Numbered from the stretch's first letter, positions 29,484 to 45,143 are shown. The stretch is DNA of 64,000 nucleotides from Candidatus Eiseniibacteriota bacterium (GCA_963762255.1 CAVXKA010000001.1:800001-864000); one strand, 5' to 3'. Numbers and translations: made by a program. Notes: a model not told the origin generated them from the sequence alone.

Positions 29484-31073
29484 ATGACAGCCCCAACAGG
29501 GTCTACTAGACTGCCCAGCGAAATGGAACGGTATCCCCGTGACCGCGGTGGCATCTCCAGAACCGATCTCATCCCCGGTGCCGTTCTAGTCGCGGCGATC
29601 TGTTCCTCGCTCGCCTTCGCCGGCATGCGTCTCGCGCACCGAAGTCTCTGGCTCGACGAGGCGTACAGCATCTACATTTCCAGCGCGAGTCTCAGCAGCC
29701 TCGTGACCTACCTGGTGAAAGATAACGGCCCGCCTGCCTATTATGTGATCCTCCATTTCTGGATGAACGTCTTTGGATCCAGCGAGGCGGCCACGAGGTC
29801 CCTGTCCGCTTTGTTCTATCTGGCCGGCGGCGTCTCGATCTTCGCCTTGGGGAAGTATCTATTCGGTCGATATGCCGCGCTCTGGTGCAGCGTCCTCTAT
29901 CTTGCGAGTCCACTTGCCATCGTCCATAGCCAGAATGTACGCATGTATGCCATGTTGGGGCTGGCGGTCATTGGCTCGACCTTCTGCCTCTTCAAGCTGG
30001 CGCGCGGGGAAAGCCGTTCTCTCGGTCGGGCCATTGCCTATTCCGCTGTGAGTGCCCTGGGAACGCTGACGCACTATTGGTTCTTCTTCGTTCTCGCCGC
30101 CCATGCCGTCGCGGCATTCGTGCTGGCTTCCCGATCGGGGCGGGTAGGGATCTGGCTCGCCATCGGGCTCGCCATGGCGCCGTTCGTGACGCTCTGGGGC
30201 CCGGTCTTCCTGGTCCAGTTGAACAATGAGTCTACGTACTGGTTCCCCAGAGTTGGAACGGCACGGGCGCTCTGGGATACGTGTTGCGACTTCTTCGGAA
30301 GCCGCGGCGCGGTGCTCATCGTCCTGGCGGTGGGAGTGTCCGTGATCGCCAGCCGGAGGCGACTCAAGTCCGCCGGCGTCTTTGCGGGCCTTCGTAAAGA
30401 CCGAACGCTTCTTGCGCTCGCGGTGATCCTTGCCGTTTCGATCCTGGTGCCCCTGGGTATCTCGCGGGTCAAGCCGATCTACTGTGCGGGGCGGTACATG
30501 ATCGTGGCGTTACCGGTTGCCTGTCTCTTGATGGGTGGACTCCTGGATCGCGTCGGGAACAGGATGGTAGTCTCAGGTCTCTGCTGCGCACTGCTTGTCC
30601 TGGCTTCGGCGCGGGTCTACCGGGATCGGACGGCGGCGGAGATCTGGTCCGATAGAATCGCGGGGGACTATCTGGGCGTGTCGGCCAAGGACGGAGATGT
30701 GATCATCTTCACGAGCCTCTCCCGGTTGCCGGTGGAGTACTACGTCAAGCGCGCGACGGGGGGAAAGAGAATCGAGGTGATCTCCTTTCCTTCGGATCCG
30801 GGTGAGAGCCCTATGGCGTTGAACGTGCGGCACTCGCCGGCTCGTGAGGCGGCTCTCCACGAGGAGTCGGAGGTCCTGGTGAGTCGGCTGACGGAGGCCC
30901 TGGAGGACGGGGCCACCGTGTGGCTTGTCGAGGAGGACGGAGACTTGGCCAGCGAGATCTTGCGTGGAGCGCTCGACGAGGTCGGAAACCCGGCAAACGT
31001 GATTCGGATGAAGGGTTCTTATCACGATGCGCTGCGGGTCTATGCGGGCCGAGGGCGTGGAGCTGCGCGGTGA
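29484..31073 (+). CDS. GT39/PMT-like GT-C glycosyltransferase
   Basis: SLWLDEAYS, DNGPPAYY, FGSSEAATRSLS, SQNVRMY, THY. Start approximate. Confidence 0.82.
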   Translation: MTAPTGSTRLPSEMERYPRDRGGISRTDLIPGAVLVAAICSSLAFAGMRLAHRSLWLDEAYSIYISSASLSSLVTYLVKDNGPPAYYVILHFWMNVFGSSEAATRSLSALFYLAGGVSIFALGKYLFGRYAALWCSVLYLASPLAIVHSQNVRMYAMLGLAVIGSTFCLFKLARGESRSLGRAIAYSAVSALGTLTHYWFFFVLAAHAVAAFVLASRSGRVGIWLAIGLAMAPFVTLWGPVFLVQLNNESTYWFPRVGTARALWDTCCDFFGSRGAVLIVLAVGVSVIASRRRLKSAGVFAGLRKDRTLLALAVILAVSILVPLGISRVKPIYCAGRYMIVALPVACLLMGGLLDRVGNRMVVSGLCCALLVLASARVYRDRTAAEIWSDRIAGDYLGVSAKDGDVIIFTSLSRLPVEYYVKRATGGKRIEVISFPSDPGESPMALNVRHSPAREAALHEESEVLVSRLTEALEDGATVWLVEEDGDLASEILRGALDEVGNPANVIRMKGSYHDALRVYAGRGRGAAR

Positions 31074-31141
31074 CGGTTCCGGGCCTGGGCCGTGATGCAT
31101 GCGTGGAGGGGTGCGGCGCCGGAGGATCGGGAGGCCAAGAC

Positions 31142-31813
31142 ATGCTGTGGACGGCCATCGAGCGCGGGCTCGGACCGCGGCGGACAAAGCCGCTCGAGTT
31201 CGCCCTAGCCCGTGAGATCTTATCGTCCGACTCGGTGCTCGACGTGGGCTGCGGAACCGAGTCCCCCCTGACCGCCCTCCCGGTCCGCCCGTCGCGGCTG
31301 GAGGGGGTGGACGGTCATAGCCCCGCGATCGAGGCGAGCCGCCGTCGCGGCGGCCACGACGCTTTCCATCAGCTCGACCTGCGCAGGCTGGCCGGGGCCT
31401 TCCCCCCCCGCTCCTTCGACGTGGTGGCAGCGCTGGACGTCCTGGAGCACTTCGAGAAGGAGGACGGTGTCCGTTTCCTGGAGGCCCTGGAGACGATCGC
31501 CGCGCGGAAGGTGATTGTCTTCACGCCGAACGGGTTCCTCTTCCAAGGAGAGGTAGGCGGCAACCCTTTCCAGATGCACCGGTCGGGATGGGACGCGGCG
31601 GAGATGGTCGCCCGCGGATACCGGATCACCGGTATCCACGGATGGAAGCCGTTGCGCGGGAGCGAGGCCGGGATCCGCTTCCGCCCGGGCAAACTCTGGA
31701 CCACGATCAGTTGGCTGAGCCAGGGGCTGGTCGAGGCCCGCCCCGCCCATGCCTTCCAGCTCTTCTGCGTCCTCGACCTCGGCGGGGATGCCGGCGCGGC
31801 GTCCGGTGGCTGA
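31142..31813 (+). CDS. Class I SAM-dependent methyltransferase
   Basis: VLDVGCG, SFDVV, DVLEHF, FTPNG, HRSGW. GGAGG RBS. Confidence 0.88.
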   Translation: MLWTAIERGLGPRRTKPLEFALAREILSSDSVLDVGCGTESPLTALPVRPSRLEGVDGHSPAIEASRRRGGHDAFHQLDLRRLAGAFPPRSFDVVAALDVLEHFEKEDGVRFLEALETIAARKVIVFTPNGFLFQGEVGGNPFQMHRSGWDAAEMVARGYRITGIHGWKPLRGSEAGIRFRPGKLWTTISWLSQGLVEARPAHAFQLFCVLDLGGDAGAASGG

Positions 31814-32648
31814 GCGCGGCGATCTTGCCATCGCCTTTCGCGTCTACCCCGGCGTGTCGAAACGGCCGGTCGTCCATGCCGGGGACAAGGCCGCCCTCGT
31901 GCGCCTGGGCCTGGCCTCCCTGCGCCGCGCGCTCGGCGGTCTCCGCGTCCGGGTCCATGCGATCCTCGACGGCTGTCCGCCGGAGTACGAGGACCTGGTT
32001 CGGGAGTACTTCCCGGGGCCGGACACCGGCGTTGAGTTCTGCGACCAGATCGGCAATCGCGCCACCTTCCTCCGGCAGGGGGAGTGGCTTCTTGCCCAGG
32101 ACTTCGCCGAGGCAATCTTCTTCGCCGAAGACGATTATTTCTACCGGCCCGACACGTTCCTCCCCATGCTGTCCTTCCTGAAGGAGGGACGGGGGATCGA
32201 CTTTGTCACCCCCTACGATCACGTGGACTACCACGTCCATCCCCTCCATCGCCGGACGAAGCTTCGCCGCGAACACGAGGGCCGGACGTGGCGGCGGGAG
32301 GCGACGACCTGCCTCACCTTTCTCACCACCCGGACCGTCCTGGGGGAGACGTGGCCCCTCTTCCGGGCCTTCGCCGACGGCGCGGCCGACAGCACCATCT
32401 GGGCCGCCCTCACCCGGATCCTCTTCTCGCCGGCGACCATCCTTCGCAACGCCCCCGCCGACCGCGAGGTGCCGGTGATCTACGCCGACGCACTGCGCCG
32501 CTTCCCACGACAGATCCTGGCCGGGAAGAGCTACGGGCTCTGGTGCCCGGAACCCGGCTTCGCCACCCACCTCGAGTCGACCGGCCTCGCCCCCGGCTTC
32601 AGCGTGGAGGAGCTTCTCGGCCTGGGCGGGAGTCGTCCGGAGGCCTGA
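31806..32648 (+). CDS. GT-A fold glycosyltransferase-like protein
   Basis: FFAEDDY DxD-like motif, PYDH, TTCLTF, ATH. Overlaps the upstream stop. Confidence 0.7.
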   Translation: MAERGDLAIAFRVYPGVSKRPVVHAGDKAALVRLGLASLRRALGGLRVRVHAILDGCPPEYEDLVREYFPGPDTGVEFCDQIGNRATFLRQGEWLLAQDFAEAIFFAEDDYFYRPDTFLPMLSFLKEGRGIDFVTPYDHVDYHVHPLHRRTKLRREHEGRTWRREATTCLTFLTTRTVLGETWPLFRAFADGAADSTIWAALTRILFSPATILRNAPADREVPVIYADALRRFPRQILAGKSYGLWCPEPGFATHLESTGLAPGFSVEELLGLGGSRPEA

Positions 32649-32851
32649 CCACGGAGCGGCCGATCAAGCGAATCTCGACGCTTCATCCCTGAAATGCCCT
32701 ATGCCGGATGGCGTTCCGGGCAGTACAGGCCCTTTCAACGCCGCAGGCCGGGATTCGCTGGATACATGGGCGGGGGTTGCAGGCTATCCCCCGGAACTCA
32801 CGGGCCTGGAGTTGGGTCTGCTCCAAGGGTACGGCTCCTGGCGGGTGGGAC

Positions 32852-32902
32852 TATACTGAACAGCAGAGCCTACTACTGGGTTCTGTCCAATTCACGTTCG
32901 GC
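32852..32902 (+). promoter_or_regulatory. Candidate cassette promoter -10 (TATACT, 32852-32857) and attI-like core site GTTCGGC (32896-32902)
   Basis: GTTCGGC is the exact reverse complement of the R'' box GCCGAAC of the first attC, as expected at the left junction of the first cassette. Confidence 0.5.
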
Positions 32903-32935
32903 CCTCTCGGCGTAATCGCCATTCCGGAAAGTTGA

Positions 32936-34054
32936 GTGAGGGAGATGGAGCTCTCGGCTGTAGATGTCCGATCGATGCGCAGCACGGACCTCTCATGGCA
33001 GACAATTCGGGACGGCGTCGAGGTTTCGTTCCTCCCGCGGCGAATGGTTCAGGAGAGTGGCTTCACTCGTGGGGCTGTGCTCTCCTGGCGATGGGATCGA
33101 GATCTGTTCGAAGGCCGCTCGCGCAATATTGCGCTCGCGCTCCATCATGCAATGCGTACGGAGATTGAGTGGCTGTTCCTGGATCTGGTCACCGTCGATC
33201 AGTCCCTCAGCTCGGAAGAACTGCTCGAGAAAGTCTCGGCGCTCGCGACGCTCTACAAGAAAGTCCCCGTCTTTGTCGCCGGCGACCGTCCCGACGTTCC
33301 GCAGAGCGAATGGGCAAGAACGTTCAGGCGCCCTTGGCTACTCTATGAGGCTAGATCCTACGCGGTGAATCCCGCAGGAGTTACATATCTCGGCTACCGC
33401 CATCGTCTATCGTCCGAGGTCGCTCCGGTCGCGTTCGCTCCCGAGCTCCAAGCCATCAGGGAGGCCGGGTTCGCCATCTACGTTTTCTATGCCATATGGG
33501 GGTACATCGGGATGCAGGACCCCGGAGATTTCAGATTCATCCTGCGGCCCTTCTATTCGCTATTCACCTACCTCCACGAGAGATTGACCAGGGACGATTT
33601 CCTCTTTTCTGTGTTTCTCGTCTGCGCGATCCACGAGCGAACGCAGACAGTCGAAGGTTGGGACGGACCGTTCGACAATGGCTATCGAATAAACTTCCAC
33701 GACATCCGCTTCGAATCGCGGTCCTTCGACCGGTTTTCGATTGGCAAACACGAATCTGCGCGCTTCTATGAGACGCTCCGAACGATCAGCCTAGACGGCC
33801 ATCCCGTCGCCGAATGGAGGAACAAGATGACGAGCAGCTTGGACCGTAACTGGGTCAAAGTTCTGCCCGATGCAGAGCGTTCACGCTTTGATGCGCTCAA
33901 GGTTCCAGACGACGTTCGGCAGGATTACGAAGAGAGAAAGAAGGAACGACTTGCCAGCCTCTTTCTCGACGCGCAGGCGGCCCGGCCACAAGTGCGCCAA
34001 CTAACAGCCTACCTGGATCGCGAAGTGTGGATTCCTTTCGAGCCAGCGGAATGA
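32936..34054 (+). CDS. Cassette 1: HET-domain (PF06985-like, TIR-related) protein
   Basis: AVLSWRW, WLFLDLVTVDQ, ELLEKVSALATLY and FRRPWLLYE occur in the order of the HET blocks ALSYxW, LWIDxxCIxQ, EKxxQVxxMxxIY and RxWxxQE. Confidence 0.7.
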   Translation: MREMELSAVDVRSMRSTDLSWQTIRDGVEVSFLPRRMVQESGFTRGAVLSWRWDRDLFEGRSRNIALALHHAMRTEIEWLFLDLVTVDQSLSSEELLEKVSALATLYKKVPVFVAGDRPDVPQSEWARTFRRPWLLYEARSYAVNPAGVTYLGYRHRLSSEVAPVAFAPELQAIREAGFAIYVFYAIWGYIGMQDPGDFRFILRPFYSLFTYLHERLTRDDFLFSVFLVCAIHERTQTVEGWDGPFDNGYRINFHDIRFESRSFDRFSIGKHESARFYETLRTISLDGHPVAEWRNKMTSSLDRNWVKVLPDAERSRFDALKVPDDVRQDYEERKKERLASLFLDAQAARPQVRQLTAYLDREVWIPFEPAE

Positions 34055-34111
34055 AATCAACCGGGGACGTGAGGGCCGAGGTGGCCGAGTTGAGTCACTG
34101 GCCAAGAGAAT

Positions 34112-34197
34112 GCCGAACAAAGCGCTGGAGCCGACGGCATGAATTTCGGTGATTATCGCAGCCTGCAGTGGGCCGCGGCTCAGCGCCAACGTTAGAT
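34112..34197 (+). repeat. attC site 1
   Basis: GCCGAAC-AAAGCGCTGGAGCCGACGGC...GCCGCGGCTCAGCGCCAAC-GTTAGAT. Confidence 0.9.
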
Positions 34198-35044
34198 GGA
34201 GAAGACTGGAAGGGTGAATCATTCTGTGCAGTCGGGGCCGTGTATCTACTGTAGAACGATCGATGCCCCATTCACCTCTGAGGAACACGTAGTTCCGGAA
34301 TCCCTCGTCGGGGATGAGCTCATTCTGCCCAGAGGCATGGTGTGCGATGTATGCAACTCGGGCGCGCTATCTGACTTGGACAACTGCCTCCAGAACTCGC
34401 CGCTTCTGGGTCTTCACCGCGTACTCTATGGCCCTGGCTTCACCAAGCAGGGCAAGAGACCGATCGCAAATTTCCAGAACGCCTTCCTCTCTCGTCACGG
34501 CGATACTCACATTCAGCTTCGTCCCAAGGACCGGACGGGGGGGATCCGCGACTTTGAGGAACTTCCAGATGGCACCTCACGATTCTCCGTTTCCCTGAAG
34601 AGGCACTTTGACCATGTCAAGTTCAGCAGGGCCCTTCAAAAGATCGGGCTCGGAGCATTCGCCCTCAAGAAGGGGCGGGATCCAGCACTAGATCAACGAT
34701 TCGATACGGCGCGCAGCTTCATACTGCAGGGAGGCACATTCCCAAGTTCGTGGATCCTGGCACTGTCCGGTCCCCCAGCGCCCGGCGGATCGCTCAGGTT
34801 CTGGGATGTCCATCCGCTCGCGCTGTTCGCGTTGGAGGTATCCGGTGTGCGGATGGGATTCCCTCTGGAGCCCACGCCACGATTGGAGGATCTCCCAGTC
34901 GCTGGACTGTTGACCAATGTCGCCTGGTTCCCGATGGATGGGGAGCACGATGACTTTGTAGTCTCGAGCCCATCGGTCGGAGCCGGGAATCAGGACGGCC
35001 CATCTAACGGGCCGCTGCAGCCGCCGCCCGCTCCTGAGGAGTAA
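34196..35044 (+). CDS. Cassette 2: HNH endonuclease (HNH_5-like)
   Basis: CIYC...SEEHVVPESL...VCDVCN...LD. The C-terminus reads into attC2. Confidence 0.82.
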   Translation: MEKTGRVNHSVQSGPCIYCRTIDAPFTSEEHVVPESLVGDELILPRGMVCDVCNSGALSDLDNCLQNSPLLGLHRVLYGPGFTKQGKRPIANFQNAFLSRHGDTHIQLRPKDRTGGIRDFEELPDGTSRFSVSLKRHFDHVKFSRALQKIGLGAFALKKGRDPALDQRFDTARSFILQGGTFPSSWILALSGPPAPGGSLRFWDVHPLALFALEVSGVRMGFPLEPTPRLEDLPVAGLLTNVAWFPMDGEHDDFVVSSPSVGAGNQDGPSNGPLQPPPAPEE

Positions 35045-35104
35045 GCTGCGGCTTGGAAGGGCGACCGGTTGTCGCGGGCGCGGCTGACCGGCAGCACGTT
35101 AGGC
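35002..35104 (+). repeat. attC site 2 (long family)
   Basis: ATCTAAC-GGGCCGCTGCAGCCGCCGCCCGC...GCGGGCGCGGCTGACCGGCAGCAC-GTTAGGC. Confidence 0.9.
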
Positions 35105-35142
35105 GAACGAAGATGGCGCAGCGAGTCAACGGCGAGAAACCA

Positions 35143-38100
35143 ATGAACCAAGCTGACCGCGTTTTCATCAGCTACAGCCACCGGGGAAGCGGACCGGGTT
35201 GGAAGGCACGGATGGTGCGGCATCTTGGTGTCTTTGAGCGACATCATCTCCTCGATGTGTGGCAGGACGGCAAAATCCGTGTCAGTTCCTACTGGGACGA
35301 CGACATCACACAGGCCATGAGCAGTGCCCGACTAGCAGTTGTGCTGCTTACCCCTGAGGCTCTCGAATCCCAGTACATCCTTGATAAGGAATTCCCATTC
35401 CTCCGTGAGTGCCAGCAGCGCGACAGGCTCTCGGTGTTCCCGGTGATCTGCGAACCGTGCGACTGGAAAGTCCATGATTGGTTACGAGCGACTCAGGCAC
35501 CGAATGAATCGAATCCCCTCTCACCACTCACCGAAGCCGCGCAAGACCGCATCTTCCGCCAACTCGCCACGGACATCGCGACAGAACTAAGCCGCGTTGC
35601 GTTTGCCGAGTTGCCGAAGTTTGACCAGCCGCCTGCACCCGAACACATCTACCTCGAGAAGTTTCCACTCACCCGTGGCCCCGGGCTGCGTGAGGAGAAA
35701 CTCATTGGCCGGGAACAGGAACTCGCCCTCCTCGACCTCGCCTTCGCCCAGCCGCACACCGCAATCGTCTCTCTCGTCGCCTGGGGCGGCGTGGGCAAGA
35801 CCATGCTCGTCCAGCACTGGCTCCAGCACCTCCAACGCGAGGGCTGGTTAGGCGCGCAGCGCGTCTATGCGTGGAGCTTCTACAGCCAGGGCACCAAGGA
35901 AGACCGGCAAGCCTCCGAAGACACCTTCCTCGCCCACGCCCTCGAATGGTTCGGCGTCCAATGCGAGCCGACCCTCTCGCCGTGGGACAAAGGACGCGTG
36001 CTCGCCGACGCCGTCGCCCGGGAACGCACGCTGCTCGTCCTCGACGGCATCGAGCCGCTCCAGTATCCGCCCGGCCCGATGGGCGGCCAACTCCGCGCCC
36101 CCGGCGTGCAGAGCCTGTTGAAACACCTGACGCGCAACGCGAACTCAGCCGATCAACACGGCCTCTGCCTTGTCACGACGCGCGAACCGCTCGCCGACCT
36201 CGCCGATTTCCAGCGGCGCGAGGCTTCGCCGTGGGGCAGCGTGCTCCGCGTGGACCTTGGCAACCTCACCGCTGAAGCCGGCGCCGCGCTGCTCCATCAC
36301 GCAGGAGCCAGCCGGGCTGGCGCGGCGGAGATCAAACCTGACGACAAGGAACTGATTGCCGCCAGCCGCGAAGTGGACGGTCACGCCCTCACGCTCAATC
36401 TGTTGGGCCGCTTCCTCGCCCGCGCGCACGTCGGCGACATCCGCCGCCGCGACTTGGTGAAATTCGAGGAAGCCGACCGCGAGGAACAAGGCGGCACAAC
36501 CTTCAAGATGCTCGCCGCCTTCGAGAACTGGTTTGCCAACGAAGGCGACATTGAAGCACGAGCCTTAACCATCCTTCGGCTTCTCGCCCTGTTCGACCGT
36601 CCAGCGGATGCGGGCTGCATGGGCGCTTTGCGAAAGTCTCCCATCATCTCCGGGTTGACCGAGCCTCTGTTCACGCTGAGACGGGATTCAAATACCGGTC
36701 AGATGAATGAGAAGCCGCTTTCTGACAAAGCGTGGAATGATGCGATTCATTTTCTTGTCGACTTTGACCTCGTAACCGTGATCGCGTTCGAACGACCTCA
36801 GATTCGAGGCTTCAATATGTTCACAGCACAAGTGATGAGATTCTACGGTCCGAACGCCGGCGTAGTGGAAGAGTTTGACACGGCTTCTGCTGTCCCTGCA
36901 AATGGCAGTTACGTTCTGGAGGCTCACCCTCTCATTCGTGAACACTTTGAGCGGCGTTTACGAATTCAAAGTCCGCACTCTTACAGGAACGGACATTCGC
37001 GCGTGTTCGAGTTCCTCAAGCAATCCGTGCCCTATTGGCCGGAAGGAATCCACAACTTGGTACCGCTCTATCAAGCCGTCTTCCACGGCTGCCGGGCTGG
37101 GGAGTATGACGATGCACGCGAACAGGTGTTCCGGGATCGCATCCTTCGCGCTACTTCCGGGCCGTGCGCGAATTACAGCACTTTTTCGCTCGGGGCTTCC
37201 GACGCGGATCTTTCTGCTCTAGCTTGCTTCTTTGAGATAGCTTGGACACGAGCAAGAGAGGCATTCTCCGATCAGGCAGTAGCTTGGATTCTCAACGAGA
37301 CAGCTTTTCGCCTTCGCGCTATTGGTAGGATAACAGAGGCCGTCGAACCGTTGCGTGCGGCTGTCGAAGCGTCCGCAAGGTTGAGCGACTGGAGTAACGC
37401 GGCGCTTGATGCTGGCAATTTGAGTGAAGTTCACCTTGTCTCGGGAGACGTAGCCGCAGCCGTAATGGCAGCGGATCTCTCCGTCCAATACGCCGACCGA
37501 GCAAAGGACAAACCTCCAACAACGAACGAATCACCGTATTGGCCGATCCACATGCGCGCCCGACTCGCCGCCGCGTTCTTTCAATCCGGGAAGAGTGAAG
37601 ATGCACGGATCTTGTTTGAACAAGCGGAGGAAGGACAGCGGCGTGCTCAGCCCGAATTCCCCGTGCTTTACTCCGTGTCCGGCTTCCGATATTGCGAGTT
37701 CTATCTTCACGGGCCTGAACGCGCTGCTTGGAGCACTACACTTCCAGGTCTCGATTTCGTCTGGGAATCTGCGGATATGTCGTTGACGTGGACAGCTCAG
37801 AAGCGGGCACGCCAAGCACTTCATTGGCTGGAGCAATTCGGTAGCCGTGGCCTCTTGGACATAGCGCTTGACACCTTAACACTAGATCGTTCGGTATTGT
37901 ACCGGACGGTGGTTGATCACTATTCAGCGCCAAACCGCGAAATCGCACTACGCATGCTGCAGGCGGCACTACCTCCGATGCATCATCAGTTCACACTGAT
38001 TGTCGATGCTTTCAGACAGTGTCGCTCGCAAGAATTCATCCCTTTAGCCCTGTTGACGCGCGCTTGGGTGCGGTGTTTGAAAGGAGACACTGCTGGTTCC

Positions 38101-38328
38101 AAAGTCGACTTGGACGAAGCGTGGGACATTGCCGAGCGCGGGCCGATGCGGCTGCACATGGCCGACATCCACCTTTACCGCGCCCGGCTCTTCTTCCGCG
38201 AGAAACCTTACCCGTGGAATTCTTCGCAGGACGACCTCGCCGCCGCCGAGAAACTCGTCAACGACTGCGGGTACCACCGCCGTGACGAAGAACTCGCCGA
38301 CGCCAAGCGCGCCATCCTAGGAGCATGA
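35143..38328 (+). CDS. Cassette 3: TIR-STAND NTPase-helical/TPR-like repeat protein (NLR-like)
   Basis: TIR VFISYSH...VWQD...SQYILDKEFP. LIGREQEL, Walker A AWGGVGKT, Walker B LLVLDGIE, VTTR, GHALTL. Helical C-terminus. Alternative start at 35113. Confidence 0.85.
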   Translation: MNQADRVFISYSHRGSGPGWKARMVRHLGVFERHHLLDVWQDGKIRVSSYWDDDITQAMSSARLAVVLLTPEALESQYILDKEFPFLRECQQRDRLSVFPVICEPCDWKVHDWLRATQAPNESNPLSPLTEAAQDRIFRQLATDIATELSRVAFAELPKFDQPPAPEHIYLEKFPLTRGPGLREEKLIGREQELALLDLAFAQPHTAIVSLVAWGGVGKTMLVQHWLQHLQREGWLGAQRVYAWSFYSQGTKEDRQASEDTFLAHALEWFGVQCEPTLSPWDKGRVLADAVARERTLLVLDGIEPLQYPPGPMGGQLRAPGVQSLLKHLTRNANSADQHGLCLVTTREPLADLADFQRREASPWGSVLRVDLGNLTAEAGAALLHHAGASRAGAAEIKPDDKELIAASREVDGHALTLNLLGRFLARAHVGDIRRRDLVKFEEADREEQGGTTFKMLAAFENWFANEGDIEARALTILRLLALFDRPADAGCMGALRKSPIISGLTEPLFTLRRDSNTGQMNEKPLSDKAWNDAIHFLVDFDLVTVIAFERPQIRGFNMFTAQVMRFYGPNAGVVEEFDTASAVPANGSYVLEAHPLIREHFERRLRIQSPHSYRNGHSRVFEFLKQSVPYWPEGIHNLVPLYQAVFHGCRAGEYDDAREQVFRDRILRATSGPCANYSTFSLGASDADLSALACFFEIAWTRAREAFSDQAVAWILNETAFRLRAIGRITEAVEPLRAAVEASARLSDWSNAALDAGNLSEVHLVSGDVAAAVMAADLSVQYADRAKDKPPTTNESPYWPIHMRARLAAAFFQSGKSEDARILFEQAEEGQRRAQPEFPVLYSVSGFRYCEFYLHGPERAAWSTTLPGLDFVWESADMSLTWTAQKRARQALHWLEQFGSRGLLDIALDTLTLDRSVLYRTVVDHYSAPNREIALRMLQAALPPMHHQFTLIVDAFRQCRSQEFIPLALLTRAWVRCLKGDTAGSKVDLDEAWDIAERGPMRLHMADIHLYRARLFFREKPYPWNSSQDDLAAAEKLVNDCGYHRRDEELADAKRAILGA

Positions 38329-38410
38329 ACCGTCATCAGGGACCTACATCTGGGAATAGGGGGCGCCGTAGATCGAAAGGTCGGCAATGGCTGCGTGTTC
38401 GGGAGCGTGC

Positions 38411-38470
38411 GCCGAACAACAGCATGCAGCGGACGGCGCTGCGCGCCGCAGCTGATGCTGGGCGTCAGGC
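38411..38470 (+). repeat. attC site 3 (short; R' mutated to GTCAGGC)
   Basis: GCCGAAC-AACAGCATGCAGCGGACGGCGCTGCGCGCCGCAGCTGATGCTGGGC-GTCAGGC. Confidence 0.85.
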
Positions 38471-38483
38471 GTCACGAATAGGC

Positions 38484-39431
38484 ATGGTGATGGCTCCATA
38501 TCAGGTGTTTGTCTCTTTCAAGAATCTTGATGGCCATGGAAACCCGACGCCGGACAGCGTGTTGGCGGCGACTGTCAGTGGTTTTCTCGCCAGTCATGGC
38601 CTTCGCGTGTTCTTCAGCAATCAGTCTCTCGAGAAGCTTGGAACAGCCGCCTACAAGAAGGCGATAGACGATGCCCTTGACGCTTGTTCGGTGCTAGTCG
38701 CCGTCGGGACCTCGGCCAATAACCTACAATCGCCGTGGGTCCAGTATGAATGGGACAGCTTCTATAACGACCTTTTGAGCGGCTTGTGGCCTCACAAACG
38801 GCTCTTCTCCTATGTCAAGGACATAGTACCGCGCGACCCGCCTCGTTCGCTGCGACAGAATCAGTCGATCGTTCACATCGACGCGACTGATGCGTCATTG
38901 ACGTCTCTGCTCAACTTCGTTCGCAACGCACTGCCAGAAGACGGTTCAGGTCCCCAGGCAGCTGCTCAAGACTTAACGGACGAGACGATCGCGTCACTAT
39001 CGCTGGTAGAGAGGCTGGCTCTGGGCATCTTGTGCTGGGATACCGAGACACCAGACGTCCTGCACGAGTCGATCCTTCCTCTCTGGCATTCTCTCCCGCG
39101 GCTGGCTCGTCGTGCATATTCGGACTACGCCGACCAAGTCATCGATCAATTCGGCGCGCTGGGGTACGACTTGGTGCCTACGGACGACAGATCCTCGGTG
39201 TTTCGCTTGACCCCGGATCAAGTGGAAGCACTCGCGGGGTACGAACACATGGAGTGGCTTGCCAGGAAAGCGGCTTTCGGGTGGCAGTATGGTGGCTGGA
39301 TGGACAAGCCAAACAAACGCAGCCCGTTTCTGGCTCCCTGGTCCGATCTTCCAGACCGGGCAAAGCAACTTGCTTTGACGGACGTTCGGTCACTTCCGGT
39401 TGCTCTTGCGGCGGCCTGGTTGCGGTTATGA
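38484..39431 (+). CDS. Cassette 4: TIR domain fused to RyR (ryanodine receptor repeat) domain
   Basis: QVFVSFKN...IDDALD...SPWVQYEW (TIR). LAGYEHMEW...GWQYG...RSPFLAPWSDLP (RyR), preceded by the half repeat LPLWHSLP...LGYDL. Confidence 0.82.
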   Translation: MVMAPYQVFVSFKNLDGHGNPTPDSVLAATVSGFLASHGLRVFFSNQSLEKLGTAAYKKAIDDALDACSVLVAVGTSANNLQSPWVQYEWDSFYNDLLSGLWPHKRLFSYVKDIVPRDPPRSLRQNQSIVHIDATDASLTSLLNFVRNALPEDGSGPQAAAQDLTDETIASLSLVERLALGILCWDTETPDVLHESILPLWHSLPRLARRAYSDYADQVIDQFGALGYDLVPTDDRSSVFRLTPDQVEALAGYEHMEWLARKAAFGWQYGGWMDKPNKRSPFLAPWSDLPDRAKQLALTDVRSLPVALAAAWLRL

Positions 39432-39468
39432 CGGACGTCGGATGGAACGATGTGATCGCAGCTGTGAC

Positions 39469-39537
39469 GCCTAACACGGCATGCACCAGGCGGCGCGCGG
39501 GGTACAGCGCGCCGCTGGTGATGCCGAGCCGTTAGGC
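39469..39537 (+). repeat. attC site 4
   Basis: GCCTAAC-ACGGCATGCACCAGGCGGCGCGC...GCGCGCCGCTGGTGATGCCGAGCC-GTTAGGC. Confidence 0.9.
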
Positions 39538-39567
39538 AGGCAATGGGGCTTGGTTACGGTGGCTGGA

Positions 39568-40035
39568 ATGCGATTCTTTCTAGTCGTCTTGATTGTGGCC
39601 CTGGGGGGATGTGGGTCCGAGTCATCGCCCCAGCAGACTGTGCCGATCCCTGACGTGACAGATGACATGACAGAGGAGTGCGAGTGTCTTGCCGTGGCTC
39701 CCTACTTCTCGGCTTCCTGTGTCGGGATTGCGGGGGCCATGCCGCACATGGTCCCATGCTGGCGCGCGATCGTGGCGCACGCAGACGGGGACGATCACTT
39801 CAGGGAACTTCTCGATCACGCGACGTTGGCTGGGCAGTTGTATGGGCTCGCGGGGTTGTACTTCACGGACCGTAGCGGTTTTGACATGTACGTTCAGCCG
39901 TACCTGGCAAGCACTGACAGCGTCCGCACGTTCGAAGGTTGCATCATCCGTCGTGTCGAGGTACGGGAACTCATGGGGGGGTTCCTGAATGGAACGACGC
40001 CAGCGGCCCTGCAGTCACTGGAGTGTCCATTCTAG
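39568..40035 (+). CDS. Cassette 5: hypothetical lipoprotein
   Basis: Lipobox MRFFLVVLIVALGGC. GQLYGLAGLY and GCII motifs. Confidence 0.7.
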   Translation: MRFFLVVLIVALGGCGSESSPQQTVPIPDVTDDMTEECECLAVAPYFSASCVGIAGAMPHMVPCWRAIVAHADGDDHFRELLDHATLAGQLYGLAGLYFTDRSGFDMYVQPYLASTDSVRTFEGCIIRRVEVRELMGGFLNGTTPAALQSLECPF

Positions 40036-40045
40036 TCAAAGGGCT

Positions 40046-40151
40046 GCCTAACGGGCCGCTGCAGCCGCCGCCCGCTCCCCCCGGGGAGTAGGATAGGGCC
40101 TTGAAGGGTGGCCGGTGGTCCCGGGCGCGGCTGACCGGCAGCACGTAAGGC
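40046..40151 (+). repeat. attC site 5 (long family; R' mutated to GTAAGGC)
   Basis: GCCTAAC-GGGCCGCTGCAGCCGCCGCCCGC...GGGCGCGGCTGACCGGCAGCAC-GTAAGGC. Confidence 0.87.
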
Positions 40152-40229
40152 AACATCGGGCAGTCGCAGTCGGTCTGTCGGGGCCGGAACCGCTGGAAAT
40201 CGCGGGTCAGACTTCGAAGGGAGGGCCGA

Positions 40230-40655
40230 ATGATCGGAGCACTTGTGGCCAGGAAAGCGCTGGCGGGCGCTTTCGATGCGTTGAACCGGCATGATCTGCC
40301 GAAGTTCATGTCGGCCTGGCGGGACGACGGGGTGTTTGTCTATCCCGGCGAAATACCTGAAAGCGGGACCTTTCAGGGCAAGAGCGCCGTCGCAGGCTGG
40401 TTCGGACATTTCTTCGAGCAGTTTCCAGGGATCAGATTCGAGATTCAAGACCTCTGCGTCCGGAACATCTTCGACCTTTCAGGCACCAACGTCGTCGCTG
40501 TGCACTGGAATATCCAGCTTACCAACCGAGAGGGACGTGTAGGCCAAAACAGCGGCGTGACGGTCGTGAACATCAAATACGGCAAGGTCTTCCTCGTGAA
40601 GGATTTCATCTTTGATCTTGGCGACAACTTCAGGCGCAATTGGAGTGCATCGTAG
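40230..40655 (+). CDS. Cassette 6: SnoaL/NTF2-like protein
   Basis: FDALNRHD, GTFQGKSAVAGWF, VVAVHW. GGAGG RBS. Confidence 0.85.
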   Translation: MIGALVARKALAGAFDALNRHDLPKFMSAWRDDGVFVYPGEIPESGTFQGKSAVAGWFGHFFEQFPGIRFEIQDLCVRNIFDLSGTNVVAVHWNIQLTNREGRVGQNSGVTVVNIKYGKVFLVKDFIFDLGDNFRRNWSAS

Positions 40656-40666
40656 CGAGCGCAGCT

Positions 40667-40763
40667 GCGTGACTGGCGTTTGCAGTCCCCGCCCGCTCAT
40701 TGGGAGTGGAATCGGCCAAAGAGCCGGCCGTCGCGCGCGCGGCCGACCGGCAGCACGTTAGAG
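40667..40763 (+). repeat. attC site 6 (long family, degenerate R'')
   Basis: GCGTGAC-TGGCGTTTGCAGTCCCCGCCCGC...GCGCGGCCGACCGGCAGCAC-GTTAGAG. Confidence 0.75.
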
Positions 40764-40770
40764 AGCAGCA

Positions 40771-41484
40771 ATGCCAAGAAGACCTCGACCGATGCGGACA
40801 CGGCGCAGTGAGCACTGGCTCCGTGCTGCCGTGAATAAGCATTCGGAGCCCCTGAATGCACGGGTGCGTACCGTTCTTGGACTTGCGCCCAATGACGCGA
40901 TCCACTGGCTCTCCCCGCTGGCGGATGACGAGTTTGCGGAATACTACGACGAGGCATTTCTCGAGAGGCTCGAGATCAGAGGACTGTCAGTGCCCCTGAG
41001 CGAGTTTTGGCCAGCAGGCGGTCCCAGGTGGGATGGGTTGGCACGCACGAGTTCTGGTGAGCACATCCTGGTTGAGGCCAAGGCATACGTGGAAGAGGCC
41101 GTGGACTACCGCAGCCGAGCCGGGGAATCCTCTCTGATCAAGATCCGCTACGCCTTGGGATTGGCGAAGGAGGCGTTCCGCGCATCGGCCGAAGGATCGT
41201 GGGAGCGGCCCTTCTACCAGTACGCCAACCGTTTGGCGCATCTCCACTTCTTGCGGGGTCTGAATGGAGTGAAGGCGCGTCTTCTCTTCTTGTATTTCGC
41301 CGATGCACCAGATGTTCCCCGGCCCTGTAGCGAGGACCAGTGGATTGGTGCAATCCGGCTGATCAACAAGGTGCTTGGGCTGGGTGAACACCCATACCAA
41401 CCGCATGTTGGACACCTAATATGGAGCGTCCAGGATCTGCTCTCAGACCAGTCGTTACAGCCGCCGCCCGCGCCTGGGGAGTAG
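40771..41484 (+). CDS. Cassette 7: PD-(D/E)XK nuclease-like protein
   Basis: FWPAGGPRWDGL...ILVEAKA...YQYANRL. Confidence 0.7.
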   Translation: MPRRPRPMRTRRSEHWLRAAVNKHSEPLNARVRTVLGLAPNDAIHWLSPLADDEFAEYYDEAFLERLEIRGLSVPLSEFWPAGGPRWDGLARTSSGEHILVEAKAYVEEAVDYRSRAGESSLIKIRYALGLAKEAFRASAEGSWERPFYQYANRLAHLHFLRGLNGVKARLLFLYFADAPDVPRPCSEDQWIGAIRLINKVLGLGEHPYQPHVGHLIWSVQDLLSDQSLQPPPAPGE

Positions 41485-41500
41485 GATCCGCGCTTGAAGG
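41442..41500 (+). repeat. Left part of a long-family attC (degenerate)
   Basis: CTCAGAC-CAGTCGTTACAGCCGCCGCCCGCGCCTGGGGAGTAGGAT...TTGAAGG aligns to the left arm and loop of attC5. Confidence 0.7.
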
Positions 41501-41519
41501 CATGACATCGGAGAGCGCA

Positions 41520-42188
41520 ATGAGGCACTGTGGACCGTGGATAGCAGCTCCTGTGATCTGGTTAGCCCTTTCCGGCCATGCGCCCCCGGTTCTTGGCGGG
41601 GAGTGCACTGAAGGGGAGGACCACTATCTTACGGACATTGAGATCCACGGATCGCAAGCGCACGACGAGAGCTTCCACTGCCTACAATGGACGGCGGCTG
41701 ACTGGAGCAAGTGGGCCGGCCCGATCGCTGGCTCCATGTTCGAGGAGTGCCGACGATCGCCGATTCGTGAACGATTGACCGCGGCATGCACACCGCTGCT
41801 CGCCGACACCGCGCGGGTGACCCTCGAGTGGCGGATCCCTCGGTACCGAGCAGCCGTGTTGCTCGCTTCGTACGGCATACCTCGCGTTGCCGACCAGGAT
41901 ATCTTTGGGATCATCACCGAGGAGATGCGAGGCCGGGGCTCCTTGGGCACGGCGGACTACATGGCGCTGGCGGCCCTTCGAGACCCAAGGACGGTGCAGT
42001 TCCTGGCCGGAGAATTCGACTCTGTCGCCTCGGTGCGTGCCCCGGATCGGCTGGAGGTGATCCGGGACATTCTGAACTGCCTCTACCATGTTCCGGGAGA
42101 TTCAGCGGTCGCTCTTGCGAAGACGATCAGTGAGAGGGAGCGCGATCCCGCGATCAAGGAGAGGGCGGAGAGGGTCATTCATCGGTAG
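41520..42188 (+). CDS. Hypothetical secreted protein with HEAT-like C-terminal helices
   Basis: Signal-like N-terminus, GGAGAG RBS, ALAALRDPRTVQFL. Confidence 0.65.
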   Translation: MRHCGPWIAAPVIWLALSGHAPPVLGGECTEGEDHYLTDIEIHGSQAHDESFHCLQWTAADWSKWAGPIAGSMFEECRRSPIRERLTAACTPLLADTARVTLEWRIPRYRAAVLLASYGIPRVADQDIFGIITEEMRGRGSLGTADYMALAALRDPRTVQFLAGEFDSVASVRAPDRLEVIRDILNCLYHVPGDSAVALAKTISERERDPAIKERAERVIHR

Positions 42189-42190
42189 AA

Positions 42191-42212
42191 CTGGCCGTCG
42201 CGGGCGCGGCTG
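42191..42212 (+). repeat. Right-arm fragment of a long-family attC
   Basis: CTGGCCGTCGCGGGCGCGGCTG matches the attC2/attC6 right arm. The terminal R' is missing. Confidence 0.55.
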
Positions 42213-42237
42213 GGTGACGGAGCGACAAGTACACCCT

Positions 42238-42855
42238 ATGCGACGTTGGTCAATCCTCGTAGCCGGCGTTTCCCAGATCGCCGTGGGCCTGTCTCAGGTG
42301 GCGGCCTTCCCGGCGATCGATTGCTTCCCGGTTGGGCCGTACGGCTTGTCTCAACAGGACTCCAGCGTTGTGTCCGGCGCGTTGAGCCTGGATGGGTGGA
42401 GCCGGATCTGTCTCCAGGTGCGAGATCCCGGCTGGGACGCGACTGATTGCGAATACGTGTACCCCACGGACGTGTTCCGCCTGGCTGATTGTCGGGAGGA
42501 CACTCTTCGCTTGGCTGGCTGCGCCGGCGACTTCGACGGTGACGGGCAGCGGGATGTTGCGCTGCTTGTCAAGCGGATCGGAGACGGTAGCGTTCGAGCC
42601 TTCGTCCGCTTGGCCAAGGGCGATGGTTTGCACACCGTCCAATTGCCGCCGATCATGGACGAGTACGGTTTCGAAAGTGACCCGACGATCCCTCCGGGGC
42701 CCTTCTGCATTCGCAAGCCAGTCTCTGGTACGGTCCATTTCCAAAGCGAATATGGGGATTACACGTACTCGCCGAAGGGAGATCTCTTGGTTCTGGGCTG
42801 GGAGACGTATGCATGGGGCGACACGGGCTTTGTGGTCGTCCACACGGCGGACTGA
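42238..42855 (+). CDS. Hypothetical secreted protein with FG-GAP-like Ca-binding motif
   Basis: Signal-like N-terminus and GDFDGDGQRDVALL. Confidence 0.65.
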   Translation: MRRWSILVAGVSQIAVGLSQVAAFPAIDCFPVGPYGLSQQDSSVVSGALSLDGWSRICLQVRDPGWDATDCEYVYPTDVFRLADCREDTLRLAGCAGDFDGDGQRDVALLVKRIGDGSVRAFVRLAKGDGLHTVQLPPIMDEYGFESDPTIPPGPFCIRKPVSGTVHFQSEYGDYTYSPKGDLLVLGWETYAWGDTGFVVVHTAD

Positions 42856-42938
42856 GTCGATGGCGTGCCACGCGCCATCGGGCGGCTTGCGCCCGGTGCT
42901 ATAGTCGAATCTACCCCATGCCTCTTCGGAGGTCGCTG

Positions 42939-43691
42939 ATGACATGTCCATGTTGCTCGTACGCGATTCGACTGCTCGTCACTTCGCTGGCTCTGATCGG
43001 GGTATCGAGCGTTTCGGCGTGGGCCGGGACCAATCCCAACGCGGTCTTCGCGCTCCACGCCAAGGCCCACACGACCAAGCCCGTGTCCATATGCACGACG
43101 CGGAGCCCGAATAGCGGCACCCCGATCCCGTGCACCAGCTACGTCACCCAATGGCCTCTCGCCACAAGCGCGGATGTCTACCTCGTGGTAGCGCGCGGCG
43201 ATTCGGTGACCGGTATCGTCGGCGCTTCCTGCGGGGTCCAGTACAACCAGGCAGTCGGCATGGGCGTCGATATGCACGGTTGGACGCTGTGCGCCGACTT
43301 GGAGTCCATCAGCGCCGGCCCCAACGGCGGATGGCCGAACTCCGGCGGCGGCAACCGCATGACCTGGGTGGCGTCGACGAACTGCCAGCGGACGGTGGCT
43401 GGCGACCAGGGCGTGCACGCGGTGGCGGGTGCGTTCTACGTCTATGCCTATGGCACGGATGTCCTCAACCTCACGGAAAACAAGAACGTGGCGTTTCCCG
43501 AACTGGCCGTGGCCAACTGCTCCGGCCATACGGACCATCTCCCTTGGGCTCGGGTCGCGTTCGTGACATTCTCGGCGGGCGGTGTACTCGAGGGCTGCAA
43601 TCCCTGCACAGAGCCCAACGCGTCCTGTGAACGACCTGTGCCTGCGCTGCCCACCACCTGGAGCAATCTGAAGCAGAGGTTCGGGGGGTAG
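42939..43691 (+). CDS. Secreted Cys-containing protein with C-terminal PTTWSNLKQRF tail
   Basis: Signal peptide ...VSAWA and GGAGG RBS. Similar to 57155-58486. Confidence 0.78.
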   Translation: MTCPCCSYAIRLLVTSLALIGVSSVSAWAGTNPNAVFALHAKAHTTKPVSICTTRSPNSGTPIPCTSYVTQWPLATSADVYLVVARGDSVTGIVGASCGVQYNQAVGMGVDMHGWTLCADLESISAGPNGGWPNSGGGNRMTWVASTNCQRTVAGDQGVHAVAGAFYVYAYGTDVLNLTENKNVAFPELAVANCSGHTDHLPWARVAFVTFSAGGVLEGCNPCTEPNASCERPVPALPTTWSNLKQRFGG

Positions 43692-44044
43692 GCCGCGCAA
43701 GGACCGAGATGATCACCGGTGGTGGGGTTCGTGACTCTGGCGAGGATGGTAAGCTCACCGCACAATCCGTCTCGCGGAGCGCCTCAATTCACATAGGGCA
43801 GGGCCAGCGCCCGTCGTAACCGGGGGTCGTCATTACTCGCAACGCGCGATAAGTCTCGGGCAGAATCTCGTCTTCCTCAGGCGTTCCTGATCGCGCTGGC
43901 GACCTTCGGTATCATTGCTCTGAGCTTCTTGAGCTTGCGGTCATCCGGTGGTCGGCAGCGCAGATCAGGGTCTTTGCCTATTTCAACAACCTGGTCCTGA
44001 TCGGGGCATTCTTGGGGATGGCGCAGTTCTGACCCAGACACAAG

Positions 44045-44076
44045 AAGGGCCGCCCCCGCGAACGAGGGCGGCCCCT
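44045..44076 (-). terminator. Probable intrinsic terminator
   Basis: Plus-strand hairpin AAGGGCCGCCCCCG-CGAA-CGAGGGCGGCCCCT just downstream of the minus-strand gene ending at 44095. Confidence 0.55.
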
Positions 44077-44094
44077 GACGGCGGTCAAGCCATG

Positions 44095-44805
44095 TCAGCG
44101 ATAGAGGGCCTTGATTCTGCCGAAGGTCGTGGGCTCGGTGGGCACGATGCACTCCTGAATATCGATCGTCGCGGTGTAGATTACGCCGCTGACGACGAGG
44201 GCGGCGTCGCGGTTGTAGATCTGCAGTTGGTTGCTGCCGCAGTGCAGGAGCGAGGTGACATCGACTCCGCCGACCTGAGTTTCCGCGGCGTAGCTGCCGG
44301 TATTGATGCTCGGAGTGACGGCGACACCATTGATATAGACGCCGTCCAGATTGGGACCGCCGTAGATGCCGTCGCCGAGGGCGTCATCGCCCGACCAGCA
44401 GAAGTTCAGGGTCGCGGACTTGATGCAGCAGGTCTGCACGGTGAAGTTCTGACAGTAGAGCGCGGAGGCGGGCGTGCCGACAGGGTCGGTGCCGATCCAG
44501 CGAGCCAGCGGATCGCAGGCGAGCTGCTGGAGCCATGCCCCGTGGGGAGTCATGACGATGGCGGGGCGGCCGGCACAGGCGGCCGCAAAGTCGGCCGCGG
44601 TGAAGGGAAGGGGGGAAAGCGCGGTGCTCCCCACCCCGACCAGCATGTTGATCTGCGGATCGGGGCTACCGATGGGAGCATTGCCGCTGCGCAGGACGAC
44701 GGTCTCCGCCGCCACCGGTGCGGCGCTGCCGAGTGCGAGCACACACAAGCAGGACACCAGGGCGATGCCAAGAACGCGAATCGCATGATCGTTTCGCCTG
44801 AACAT
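44095..44805 (-). CDS. Secreted beta-sandwich-like protein with C-terminal PTTFGRIKALY tail
   Basis: Signal peptide, WSGDD...YING...GSNQL pattern, AGAGG RBS. Confidence 0.78.
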   Translation of the reverse strand: MFRRNDHAIRVLGIALVSCLCVLALGSAAPVAAETVVLRSGNAPIGSPDPQINMLVGVGSTALSPLPFTAADFAAACAGRPAIVMTPHGAWLQQLACDPLARWIGTDPVGTPASALYCQNFTVQTCCIKSATLNFCWSGDDALGDGIYGGPNLDGVYINGVAVTPSINTGSYAAETQVGGVDVTSLLHCGSNQLQIYNRDAALVVSGVIYTATIDIQECIVPTEPTTFGRIKALYR

Positions 44806-45099: not shown

Positions 45100-45143
45100 T
45101 TACCTGACAGCAGATACGCTTCCCAAGACGAAAGGGGTCCGAC

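Follow-up and report, generated by a model that had tools for sequence, protein, structure and literature searches.

Defence-like cargo in a seven-cassette, CALIN-type array of an uncultured Candidatus Eiseniibacteriota bacterium

How does a row of seven co-oriented genes, several of them with conflict-type domains and each followed by a short attC-type element, come to lie in a chromosome with no integrase beside it, can it still move, and does its cargo defend the host against phages? We addressed this question for a stretch of 64,000 nucleotides, hereafter the window, from a Candidatus Eiseniibacteriota bacterium (GCA_963762255.1, CAVXKA010000001.1:800001-864000), in which a cassette array occupies positions 32896-42228 and holds seven co-oriented gene cassettes on the + strand with attC-type sites between them. 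The region is a cluster of attC sites lacking an integrase (CALIN), which is an already known kind of element. This CALIN is real and clearly bounded, its cargo is defence-like and its host lineage is uncultured; phage-defence integron cassettes are already in print. The reading that we favour, with a probability of roughly three in four, is that this CALIN derives from an IntI of the lineage, that it is probably frozen, and that its cargo consists mostly of single-gene anti-phage or abortive-infection modules. An earlier interpretation made from the DNA alone (the sequence-only reading) had called the lineage poorly studied, which is plausible since the phylum comprises 206 species genomes, all of them unnamed.

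In the sequence from 32500 to 43000, an intergenic element of 61-107 bp lies 3' of each of seven co-oriented open reading frames (ORFs), opening with a RYYYAAC-like core and closing with a GTTRRRY-like core. Sites of the attC type measure about 57-141 bp and combine R'' (RYYYAAC) and R' (GTTRRRY) cores with a paired L''/L' stem that contains extrahelical bases. We scored the elements with R1, a covariance model made from 19 sites of a second cassette array of this genome only (the main array, described below; mean column identity 79%) and therefore independent of the window, and folded their bottom strands as single-stranded DNA, with fold quality given as a z score. The boundaries and sites of the window array are as follows.

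32896-32902, + strand: left boundary, a GTTCGGC core not preceded by an attC hairpin; GCCGAA at 34112 is the pairing partner of its TTCGGC
34112-34197, + strand: attC 1, 86 bp, GCCGAAC..GTTAGAT; R1 18.0 bits, rank 8; bulged hairpin, z -1.0
35002-35104, + strand: attC 2, ATCTAAC..GTTAGGC; R1 113 bits, rank 1; z -2.1; genome-specific family
38411-38471, + strand: attC 3, 61 bp, GCCGAAC..GTCAGGC with a degenerate R'; R1 14.6 bits, rank 10; z -2.55
39469-39537, + strand: attC 4, 69 bp, GCCTAAC..GTTAGGC; R1 19.8 bits, rank 6; z -6.58, equalled by 0 of 200 shuffles
40046-40152, + strand: attC 5, GCCTAAC..GTAAGGC (R'); R1 105.7 bits, rank 2; z -2.5; genome-specific family
40664-40763, + strand: attC 6, decayed left arm, ..GTTAGAG; R1 52.8 bits, rank 3; no hairpin, z -0.27; genome-specific family
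41439-41500, + strand: attC 7 left half, family type; R1 19.9 bits, rank 5, for the left half only; repeat families D2 and D4
42191-42228, + strand: attC 7 right-arm remnant, where the array ends on the right; it shares 66% identity with the right arm of the family and lacks a GTT core; repeat family D1

With its filters off, R1 placed all seven window sites within the ten best of 43 matches at E<=10. Ranks 4 and 9 are reverse-strand echoes, and the match at rank 7 (2576-2650, - strand, 18.8 bits) lies inside a coding region without core sites and was read as chance. Sites 1-5 fold into bulged hairpins that pair both cores and, at 61-107 bp, have the anatomy of attC, with deviating R' cores at sites 3 (GTC..) and 5 (GTA..). 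Sites 6 and 7 are degenerate and do not form attC-like hairpins on the bottom strand. A whole-genome motif search placed three of the window sites in the attC family of about 105 bp that forms the main array, attC 2 being 80-91% identical to the sites there. RNAalifold found compensatory changes in 0 of 21 pairs, which carries no weight either way because the copies are near-identical. The core of attC 3 was found again, with other flanks, in two soil-metagenome contigs.

The cassette ends carry a second line of evidence. The sequence-only reading had noted seven cassettes with paired ends, and this holds: the three pairs that it quoted are present, namely GTTAGATGG at 34191 with CCATCTAAC at 35000 for cassette 2, GTCAGGCGTCAC at 38465 with GTGACGCCTAAC at 39464 for cassette 4 (11 of 12 positions complementary), and GTTAGGCAG at 39531 with CTGCCTAAC at 40044 for cassette 5, while the remaining four cassettes are complementary to the R'' end of their own site at 7/7, 9/11, 7/10 and 8/10 positions, so that all seven pair. 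Such complementarity in every cassette is a circular-permutation signature, as expected of units that circularise and recombine at G|TT. Successive cassette ends of the main array pair likewise, for example GTTAGCTTG with CAAGCTAAC. Bare GTTRRRY, which alone could not yield this signature, shows no enrichment in the window (66 found against an expectation of 58), and the evidence therefore lies in the paired, structured sites rather than in the motif.

We then asked where the integrase is. The flanks of the array encode an MFS transporter, a DUF2079 protein, NDH-2, a glycosyltransferase, methyltransferases and a redoxin, and no integrase; a tblastn search of window positions 28000-47000 with an intact IntI gave no IntI trace (best E value 0.49). 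Genome-wide, the best TIGR02249 match on the three large contigs reached 107 bits against a cut-off of 265. The sole IntI trace of the genome is a decayed pseudogene at C1:1537713-1538116, 737 kb from the window array and directly upstream of the main array on the same strand. Measured against the intact IntI of a relative (G006), residues 86-129 and 184-305 survive in two frames, the second block with 81 codons for 122 positions, and nothing remains of the first 85 residues, of residues 130-183 or of the IntI-specific insertion. Relatives retain the enzyme, as IntI exceeds the cut-off in 17 of the 31 genomes of the class, with scores of up to 477 bits. In a genome of the same family as the window genome (G004), an intact-length intI (C1:743135-744073) is followed 700 bp on by an R1-type attC (124 bits, same strand), and the attC family therefore belongs to the integron system of the lineage. 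The intI of the lineage is co-oriented with the cassettes, as in Treponema-type integrons. The window genome has lost the integrase, and what it retains of the system beyond the window is the following.

C1:1538874-1560044, same strand as the intI pseudogene: main array, 23 R1 sites, cassettes of 0.44-1.76 kb
C1:486040-490613, - strand: further integrase-less cluster of the same attC family, 7 R1 sites
C2:1157211-1157652, - strand: further integrase-less cluster of the same attC family, 2 R1 sites

The paired, structured sites and the absence of an IntI nearby thus bear out the earlier description of an integrase-less integron cassette array. Where a CALIN calls for two or more attC sites within 4 kb, this array has seven, with a largest gap of 3.3 kb (35104 to 38411), and neither intI nor a pseudogene of it lies within 10 kb; an intI with the IntI-specific extra domain adjoining the array, as in a complete integron, is not present. 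Cury et al. 2016 (PMC4889954), by whose definitions the window array counts as a CALIN, name secondary-site insertion, intI loss and rearrangement as possible origins, and the elements described in that definition share with the window array the attC sites less than 4 kb apart, the lack of intI within 10 kb, the co-oriented cassettes of mostly unknown function, and a second integron-type element on the same replicon. The window array differs in that its attC family is common to a 23-site array with a pseudogene intI and the whole genome appears integrase-less, in that one of its cassettes is 3.4 kb long, and in that its last attC is split by a 690-bp gene.

The split of attC 7 falls within the central loop: its left half runs up to ..CTTGAAGG (41500), position 42191 marks the restart of the right arm, and the 690 bp in between hold a complete gene for a 222-aa secreted protein with its own ribosome-binding site. 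A short CATCGG stands at both junctions. Either an insertion into the hairpin loop or two deletions could have produced the split.

We propose that the window array is part of the same cassette system as the main array, and that its cassettes would have been inserted one by one by the IntI-type integrase of the lineage, recombining at G|TT of the attC cores. At the left end, the first core is a bare GTTCGGC past a chromosomal gene, with no R1 match upstream of 32896. A bare core of this kind, with no preceding hairpin, fits insertion of the first cassette at a non-att site, and cassette insertion at non-att sites is among the events reported in 10.1101/2022.09.11.507474. Synteny at the insertion site was uninformative, the relatives being too distant (40-49% identity); the upstream gene (31749-32648), used as a query, was found in 0 of the 7 other genomes of the family. 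Since no working integrase was detected and four sites (3, 5, 6 and 7) have degenerate cores, the array has probably become fixed in the chromosome. This bears on two further statements of the sequence-only reading. It had described the array as front-loaded, with the proximal cassettes the newest and best expressed; position effects in integrons stem from insertion at attI and transcription from the cassette promoter (Pc), neither of which is present at the array, so that the description has no mechanistic meaning here. It had also spoken of a shuffled library, which takes an integrase, and this does not agree with a 93.6%-complete genome whose sole IntI trace is a pseudogene. A scan of 32300-43000 found 0 sigma-70-like promoter sites against 2.0 expected and is uninformative for this lineage.

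The cargo consists of the following ORFs, with lengths in amino acids (aa).

32936-34054, + strand: cassette 1 ORF, 372 aa, HET-like (unconfirmed), no Pfam match
34196-35044, + strand: cassette 2 ORF, 282 aa, HNH_5 endonuclease-like; ATG in the R' core, stop within attC 2
35113-38328, + strand: cassette 3 ORF, 1071 aa, N-terminal TIR, STAND-type NTPase and a long C-terminal region
38490-39431, + strand: cassette 4 ORF, 313 aa, fusion of TIR and RyR (Repeat12-type)
39568-40035, + strand: cassette 5 ORF, 155 aa, lipoprotein-type signal peptide (LGGC), no Pfam family
40230-40655, + strand: cassette 6 ORF, 141 aa, SnoaL-like (SnoaL_2 PF12680, 59.5 bits)
40771-41484, + strand: cassette 7 ORF, 237 aa, or 230 aa if it starts at the ATG at 40792, PD-(D/E)XK-fold nuclease-like
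41520-42188, + strand: ORF between the attC 7 halves, 222 aa, signal peptide, no known family

Pfam, PADLOC and NCBIfam returned nothing for cassettes 1, 5 and 7 or for the 222-aa ORF. Conflict-type domains among these eight ORFs comprise two TIR proteins and one protein each of the HNH, HET-like and PD-(D/E)XK-fold types. The 30 ORFs of the main array encode small enzymes and unknowns, such as a methyltransferase, an M24 peptidase, a GNAT protein, a cyclophilin and a dienelactone hydrolase, and none of them contains TIR, HNH or STAND. The concentration of conflict-type domains in the window array is thus real, as a comparison of one array with one. For the first four cassettes, the domain assignments of the sequence-only reading were confirmed for TIR-RyR and, with an NTPase part below cut-off, for TIR-STAND, borderline for HNH and found below threshold for HET. 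Third-codon-position GC is 0.63-0.71 in the cassette ORFs and 0.73-0.93 in the flanking genes, and no copies of the cassette ORFs exist elsewhere in the genome, where tblastn gave only weak partial matches to TIR or RyR domains at 27-31% identity. Together with the homologs of cassette 7, which are scattered over many phyla from Pseudomonadales to Bathyarchaeia, these features point to a foreign origin of the cargo.

Cassette 3 is the largest gene of the array. Its TIR_2 domain (PF13676) scores 35.7 bits, over the cut-off of 28, and is recognised by PADLOC as a ThsB-like TIR (E 2.7e-11). The NTPase part stays below the cut-offs of both AAA_16 (29.9 against 32.6 bits) and NACHT (22.3 against 26.7 bits), and the C-terminal 600 aa yielded no repeat family. 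Cassette 4 passes for both of its domains, with 29.0 bits for TIR_2 (cut-off 28) and 34.2 bits for RyR (PF02026, cut-off 27.4), the latter matching the RyR2 repeats at E 1e-12. Its TIR half belongs to a widespread family with many different C-terminal domains, in which W83-V84-x-Y86-E87-W88 is invariant in 30 sequences; we infer that E87 is the catalytic Glu. Searches of the PDB by sequence with both TIR domains, as single sequences or as a 30-sequence profile, returned no TIR chain. The combination of the two domains is unusual: PF02026 occurs in 0 of 106 other homologs of cassette 4 and a TIR-RyR fusion in 0 of the 205 other genomes of the phylum, and we found no description of a TIR-RyR fusion in a literature search that did not extend to bioRxiv supplements, which possibly list bacterial RyR architectures.

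Phage RyR-type domains bind 2'/3'cADPR (cyclic ADP-ribose) and one cleaves them, as shown in two 2026 preprints (10.64898/2026.05.28.727677; 10.64898/2026.06.04.730250). We aligned the bacterial domains to one such protein, RyR Tad gp68 of vB_PatP_CB1, whose ligand residues are H129, W132, K147, H154, K170 and D171; two RyR queries of the phage collection did not recover a second, RyDEP of phage DyoEdafos, and gp68 was used as the reference instead. Cassette 4 has in common with these anti-Thoeris proteins the Repeat12-type PF02026 domain and the adenine-stacking H..W pair. It differs from them in being host-encoded and fused to a TIR, and in lacking equivalents of four ligand residues: only H129 and W132 are kept (2 of 6), with M, S, L and A at K147, H154, K170 and D171. 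With four ligand residues replaced, the cassette 4 RyR is not expected to be a glycosidase, and judging from its residues it may bind weakly or bind another ligand.

Cassettes 3 and 4 resemble Thoeris and the TIR-effector STAND proteins (Avs, bNACHT) in their N-terminal TIR with a conserved Glu-containing motif, in the STAND-like NTPase of cassette 3, and in the joining of the cassette 4 TIR to a putative nucleotide-binding domain. They contain no known Thoeris effector domain, neither of the ThsA nor of the ThsC-L type, and the two TIR genes are separate cassettes where Thoeris has an operon with a verified effector; no Avs or bNACHT model matches them. The effectors of Thoeris types I-XI do not include RyR (mentioned 0 times in 10.64898/2025.12.03.692087), and that systematic survey excluded Avs-type and stand-alone TIRs.

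A second intact RyR gene in the genome has a related setting. It encodes a 978-aa protein, precedes a TIR-NPHP3_N/AAA_16-WD40 gene by 44 bp, has SLATT_1 and ThiF-like genes near, and belongs to the following stretch.

C3:400681-411139, - strand: candidate conflict island with, in order, a ThiF-like gene, the 978-aa RyR protein, TIR-NPHP3_N/AAA_16-WD40, WD40 fragments, a short RyR fragment and a 708-aa SLATT_1 protein

The RyR domain of this protein keeps H129, W132, H154, K170 and D171 and has R at K147. Both intact RyR genes of the genome thus adjoin a TIR-STAND gene (2 of 2). RyR genes occur in 10 of the 206 genomes of the phylum, with the domain at the C-terminus of TrkA_N, RelA_SpoT-TPR or AAA proteins, or standing alone, once in a prophage; a TIR gene lies within the examined stretch at 2 of the 9 other RyR loci. 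The presence of RyR beside TIR at these loci supports a host-side TIR-RyR link.

The family of cassette 7 has more than 1284 homologs, no Pfam model and no name. The structure model (mean predicted local distance difference test score, pLDDT, 88.9) has PD-(D/E)XK nucleases as its best VIA fold matches, with BstEII at Z 7.7, NucS at 7.0 and SfsA at 6.3 in a middling range of 7.7-5.0, and Foldseek returned nothing for it at E<=0.001. D81 and E95-A-K97 are invariant in 27 sequences. Fold and D...(D/E)xK motif together uphold the earlier call of a PD-(D/E)XK-like protein, and the model thus supports its assignment as PD-(D/E)XK-fold nuclease-like. An R1-like site lies directly 3' of a cassette 7 homolog in 3 of 80 loci, one of them (in a metagenome-assembled genome of Acidobacteriota) being flanked on both sides, and the gene therefore moves as a cassette elsewhere too; a crude, uncalibrated regular expression for attC found nothing beside the homologs.

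Cassette 1 is HET-like by its sequence but unconfirmed. It contains the HET-like motifs LSWRWDRD, LFLDxVxxDQ and RPWxxxE, and its Atlas language-model features reach 0.98 to a HET cluster, with 29 of 30 matches in PF06985 clusters. There is no match to HET PF06985 (cut-off 22.5 bits) even at E<=10. A profile search gave 219 relatives at E<=0.001; PF06985 appears in 17 of the 70 scanned at E 3e-4 to 9e-3, none at 22.5 bits, and no other family matched. Its structure model (pLDDT 54) is too poor for a fold search. The "three TIR-fold enzymes" of the sequence-only reading had counted this HET-like protein, and the number does not stand: HET is below threshold here, and the HET-TIR relation is described as remote homology in a review (PMC10197012). 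Cassette 2 is a borderline pass for HNH_5 (PF14279, 27.6 bits against a cut-off of 27.5). Its start ATG lies inside the R' core GTTAGATGG, and both this ORF and that of cassette 7 run into a family attC, sharing an attC-encoded tail (..LQPPPAPEE and ..LQPPPAPGE).

From this domain content, anti-phage defence by the cargo is plausible. Most of the conflict-type cassettes would act as single-gene anti-phage or abortive-infection modules. In TIR-STAND, the NTPase and C-terminal part would sense a phage product and switch on the NAD-cleaving TIR domain; in TIR-RyR, the C-terminal RyR-type domain would regulate, or be regulated by, a nucleotide ligand; the predicted HNH and PD-(D/E)XK nucleases and the HET-like protein would complete the proposed set. 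Integron cassettes that encode phage defence have been demonstrated, as bacteriophage resistance integron cassettes (BRiCs; Kieffer et al., 10.1101/2024.07.02.601719; PMC12614218). BRiCs, carried by sedentary chromosomal and by mobile integrons, share with the window array compact single-gene defence-type genes as cassettes, several in a row. The window array differs in having no integrase, attI or Pc, in functions that are predicted from sequence, and in its host, a member of an uncultured high-GC phylum and not Vibrio or Enterobacteria.

Several observations weigh against the favoured reading. On the side of the sites, Rfam gave 0 families at the gathering score over the whole window, three of the seven sites score just 14.6-19.8 bits with the lineage-specific R1, and site 1 folds no better than its shuffles (z -1.0). 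On the side of the cargo, the PADLOC analysis, which the sequence-only reading had put forward as a check, recognised the TIR domains and left the remaining cassettes unmatched: its matches are ThsB-like TIR domains only, no cassette matches Avs, bNACHT or any full defence-system model at E<=0.01, and cassettes 5 and 6 and the 222-aa ORF (lipoprotein, SnoaL-like, secreted) have no defence link. Finally, at 93.6% completeness an integrase could lie on unassembled DNA or on a plasmid. Such an enzyme, or one in co-resident cells, might act in trans and keep the array mobile, and Cury et al. 2016 (PMC4889954) point out that an integrase gene located elsewhere may serve to mobilise the cassettes of a CALIN. 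We consider continued mobility very unlikely. Sites 1, 2 and 4 do retain canonical GTTRRRY R' cores and sites 1-5 their hairpins, but IntI nowhere exceeds the cut-off on the three large contigs, the cognate intI shows plain decay, R' is degenerate at sites 3 and 5, the left arm of site 6 is decayed and site 7 is in two pieces. One soil DNA sequencing run contains a 0.06 share of the sequence words and no RNA run is listed; seven short soil-DNA contigs showed no excision joints, at a cover far too thin to tell. The TIR, HET-like, HNH and PD-(D/E)XK genes could also be something other than anti-phage, such as inter-bacterial toxins, addiction modules that stabilise the array, or silent, decaying passengers. 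The lack of Pc and of promoter-like sites, the unmatched full defence-system models, the decaying array ends and the fact that, among sequencing runs, the array was seen only in low-cover DNA contigs would all suit this possibility. We nevertheless regard it as unlikely, since all ORFs are intact and long, one of them 1071 aa, and immunity or antitoxin partner genes were not seen in these cassettes. TIR-STAND architectures are, moreover, established anti-phage proteins. Avs TIRs are named in 10.64898/2025.12.03.692087, and phage-defence cassettes have been demonstrated in integrons in the work already cited (10.1101/2024.07.02.601719).

A different division of labour is conceivable for cassettes 3 and 4, which could form a Thoeris-like pair: TIR-STAND would detect infection and make a cADPR-type signal, the RyR of cassette 4 would receive it, and the TIR of cassette 4, switched on in this way, would deplete NAD. 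The binding and cleavage of 2'/3'cADPR by phage RyR domains in the two preprints (10.64898/2026.05.28.727677; 10.64898/2026.06.04.730250), the position of both intact RyR genes of the genome beside a TIR-STAND gene, and the C-terminal RyR on varied N-terminal domains in the phylum, as expected of a sensor, are all in keeping with such a pair, and the degenerate R' core of attC 3 (GTCAGGC) could lock both cassettes together. The pair remains doubtful, however, as the cassette 4 RyR has only 2 of the 6 RyR Tad binding residues, only 2 of the 9 other RyR loci have a TIR gene in the stretch examined, and the two genes are separate cassettes with their own paired ends, so that their adjacency is possibly an accident of insertion order. 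TIR-STAND proteins also usually act alone. More broadly, and just as tentatively, host RyR domains might be the missing bacterial receptors for TIR-made nucleotide signals, the fold of which phages copied as sponges and glycosidases. We think it improbable, to a similar degree, that the pathway is present twice in this genome, once as the RyR/TIR-STAND-WD40 operon with SLATT near and once as the TIR-STAND and TIR-RyR cassettes. Were this so, integron cassettes could build a signalling immune system of two parts out of pieces that move separately.

Returning to the favoured reading of a probably frozen CALIN with mostly single-gene defence modules, the locus adds an uncultured high-GC phylum, with a true integron integrase in 17 of the 31 sampled genomes, to the range of integron-type cassette systems that carry defence-like genes. 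It also offers a clear example of decay, with a pseudogenised intI, orphan arrays and degenerate cores. Its HET-like, TIR-STAND and TIR-RyR genes and its unnamed PD-(D/E)XK family of more than 1,000 members are compact candidates for cloning, and the parts that merit bench work are the split last attC, the HET-like family and the TIR-RyR fusion. Together with the second RyR/TIR-STAND locus, this fusion is relevant to the role of bacterial-side RyR domains in TIR signalling, a question raised by the two 2026 preprints.

Other RyR genes of the phylum add further contexts. Three loci (G019:C5, G187:C135 and G085:C102) encode proteins of about 830-1020 aa with a RelA_SpoT nucleotide pyrophosphokinase, TPR and a C-terminal RyR; the RelA_SpoT part matches the PADLOC candidate PDC-S33, and one of the genes adjoins a NUDIX gene and lies 2 kb from a TIR gene, across an insertion sequence. 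The host RyR genes have their counterpart on the phage side in a 138-aa RyR protein (G003:C17:21463-21879) of a prophage-like stretch, where a P22-type portal gene follows 1 kb downstream. Just past the window array, the gene at 42920-43691 belongs to a multi-copy family without a Pfam family, with copies on C1, C2 and C3 at 66-69% DNA identity.

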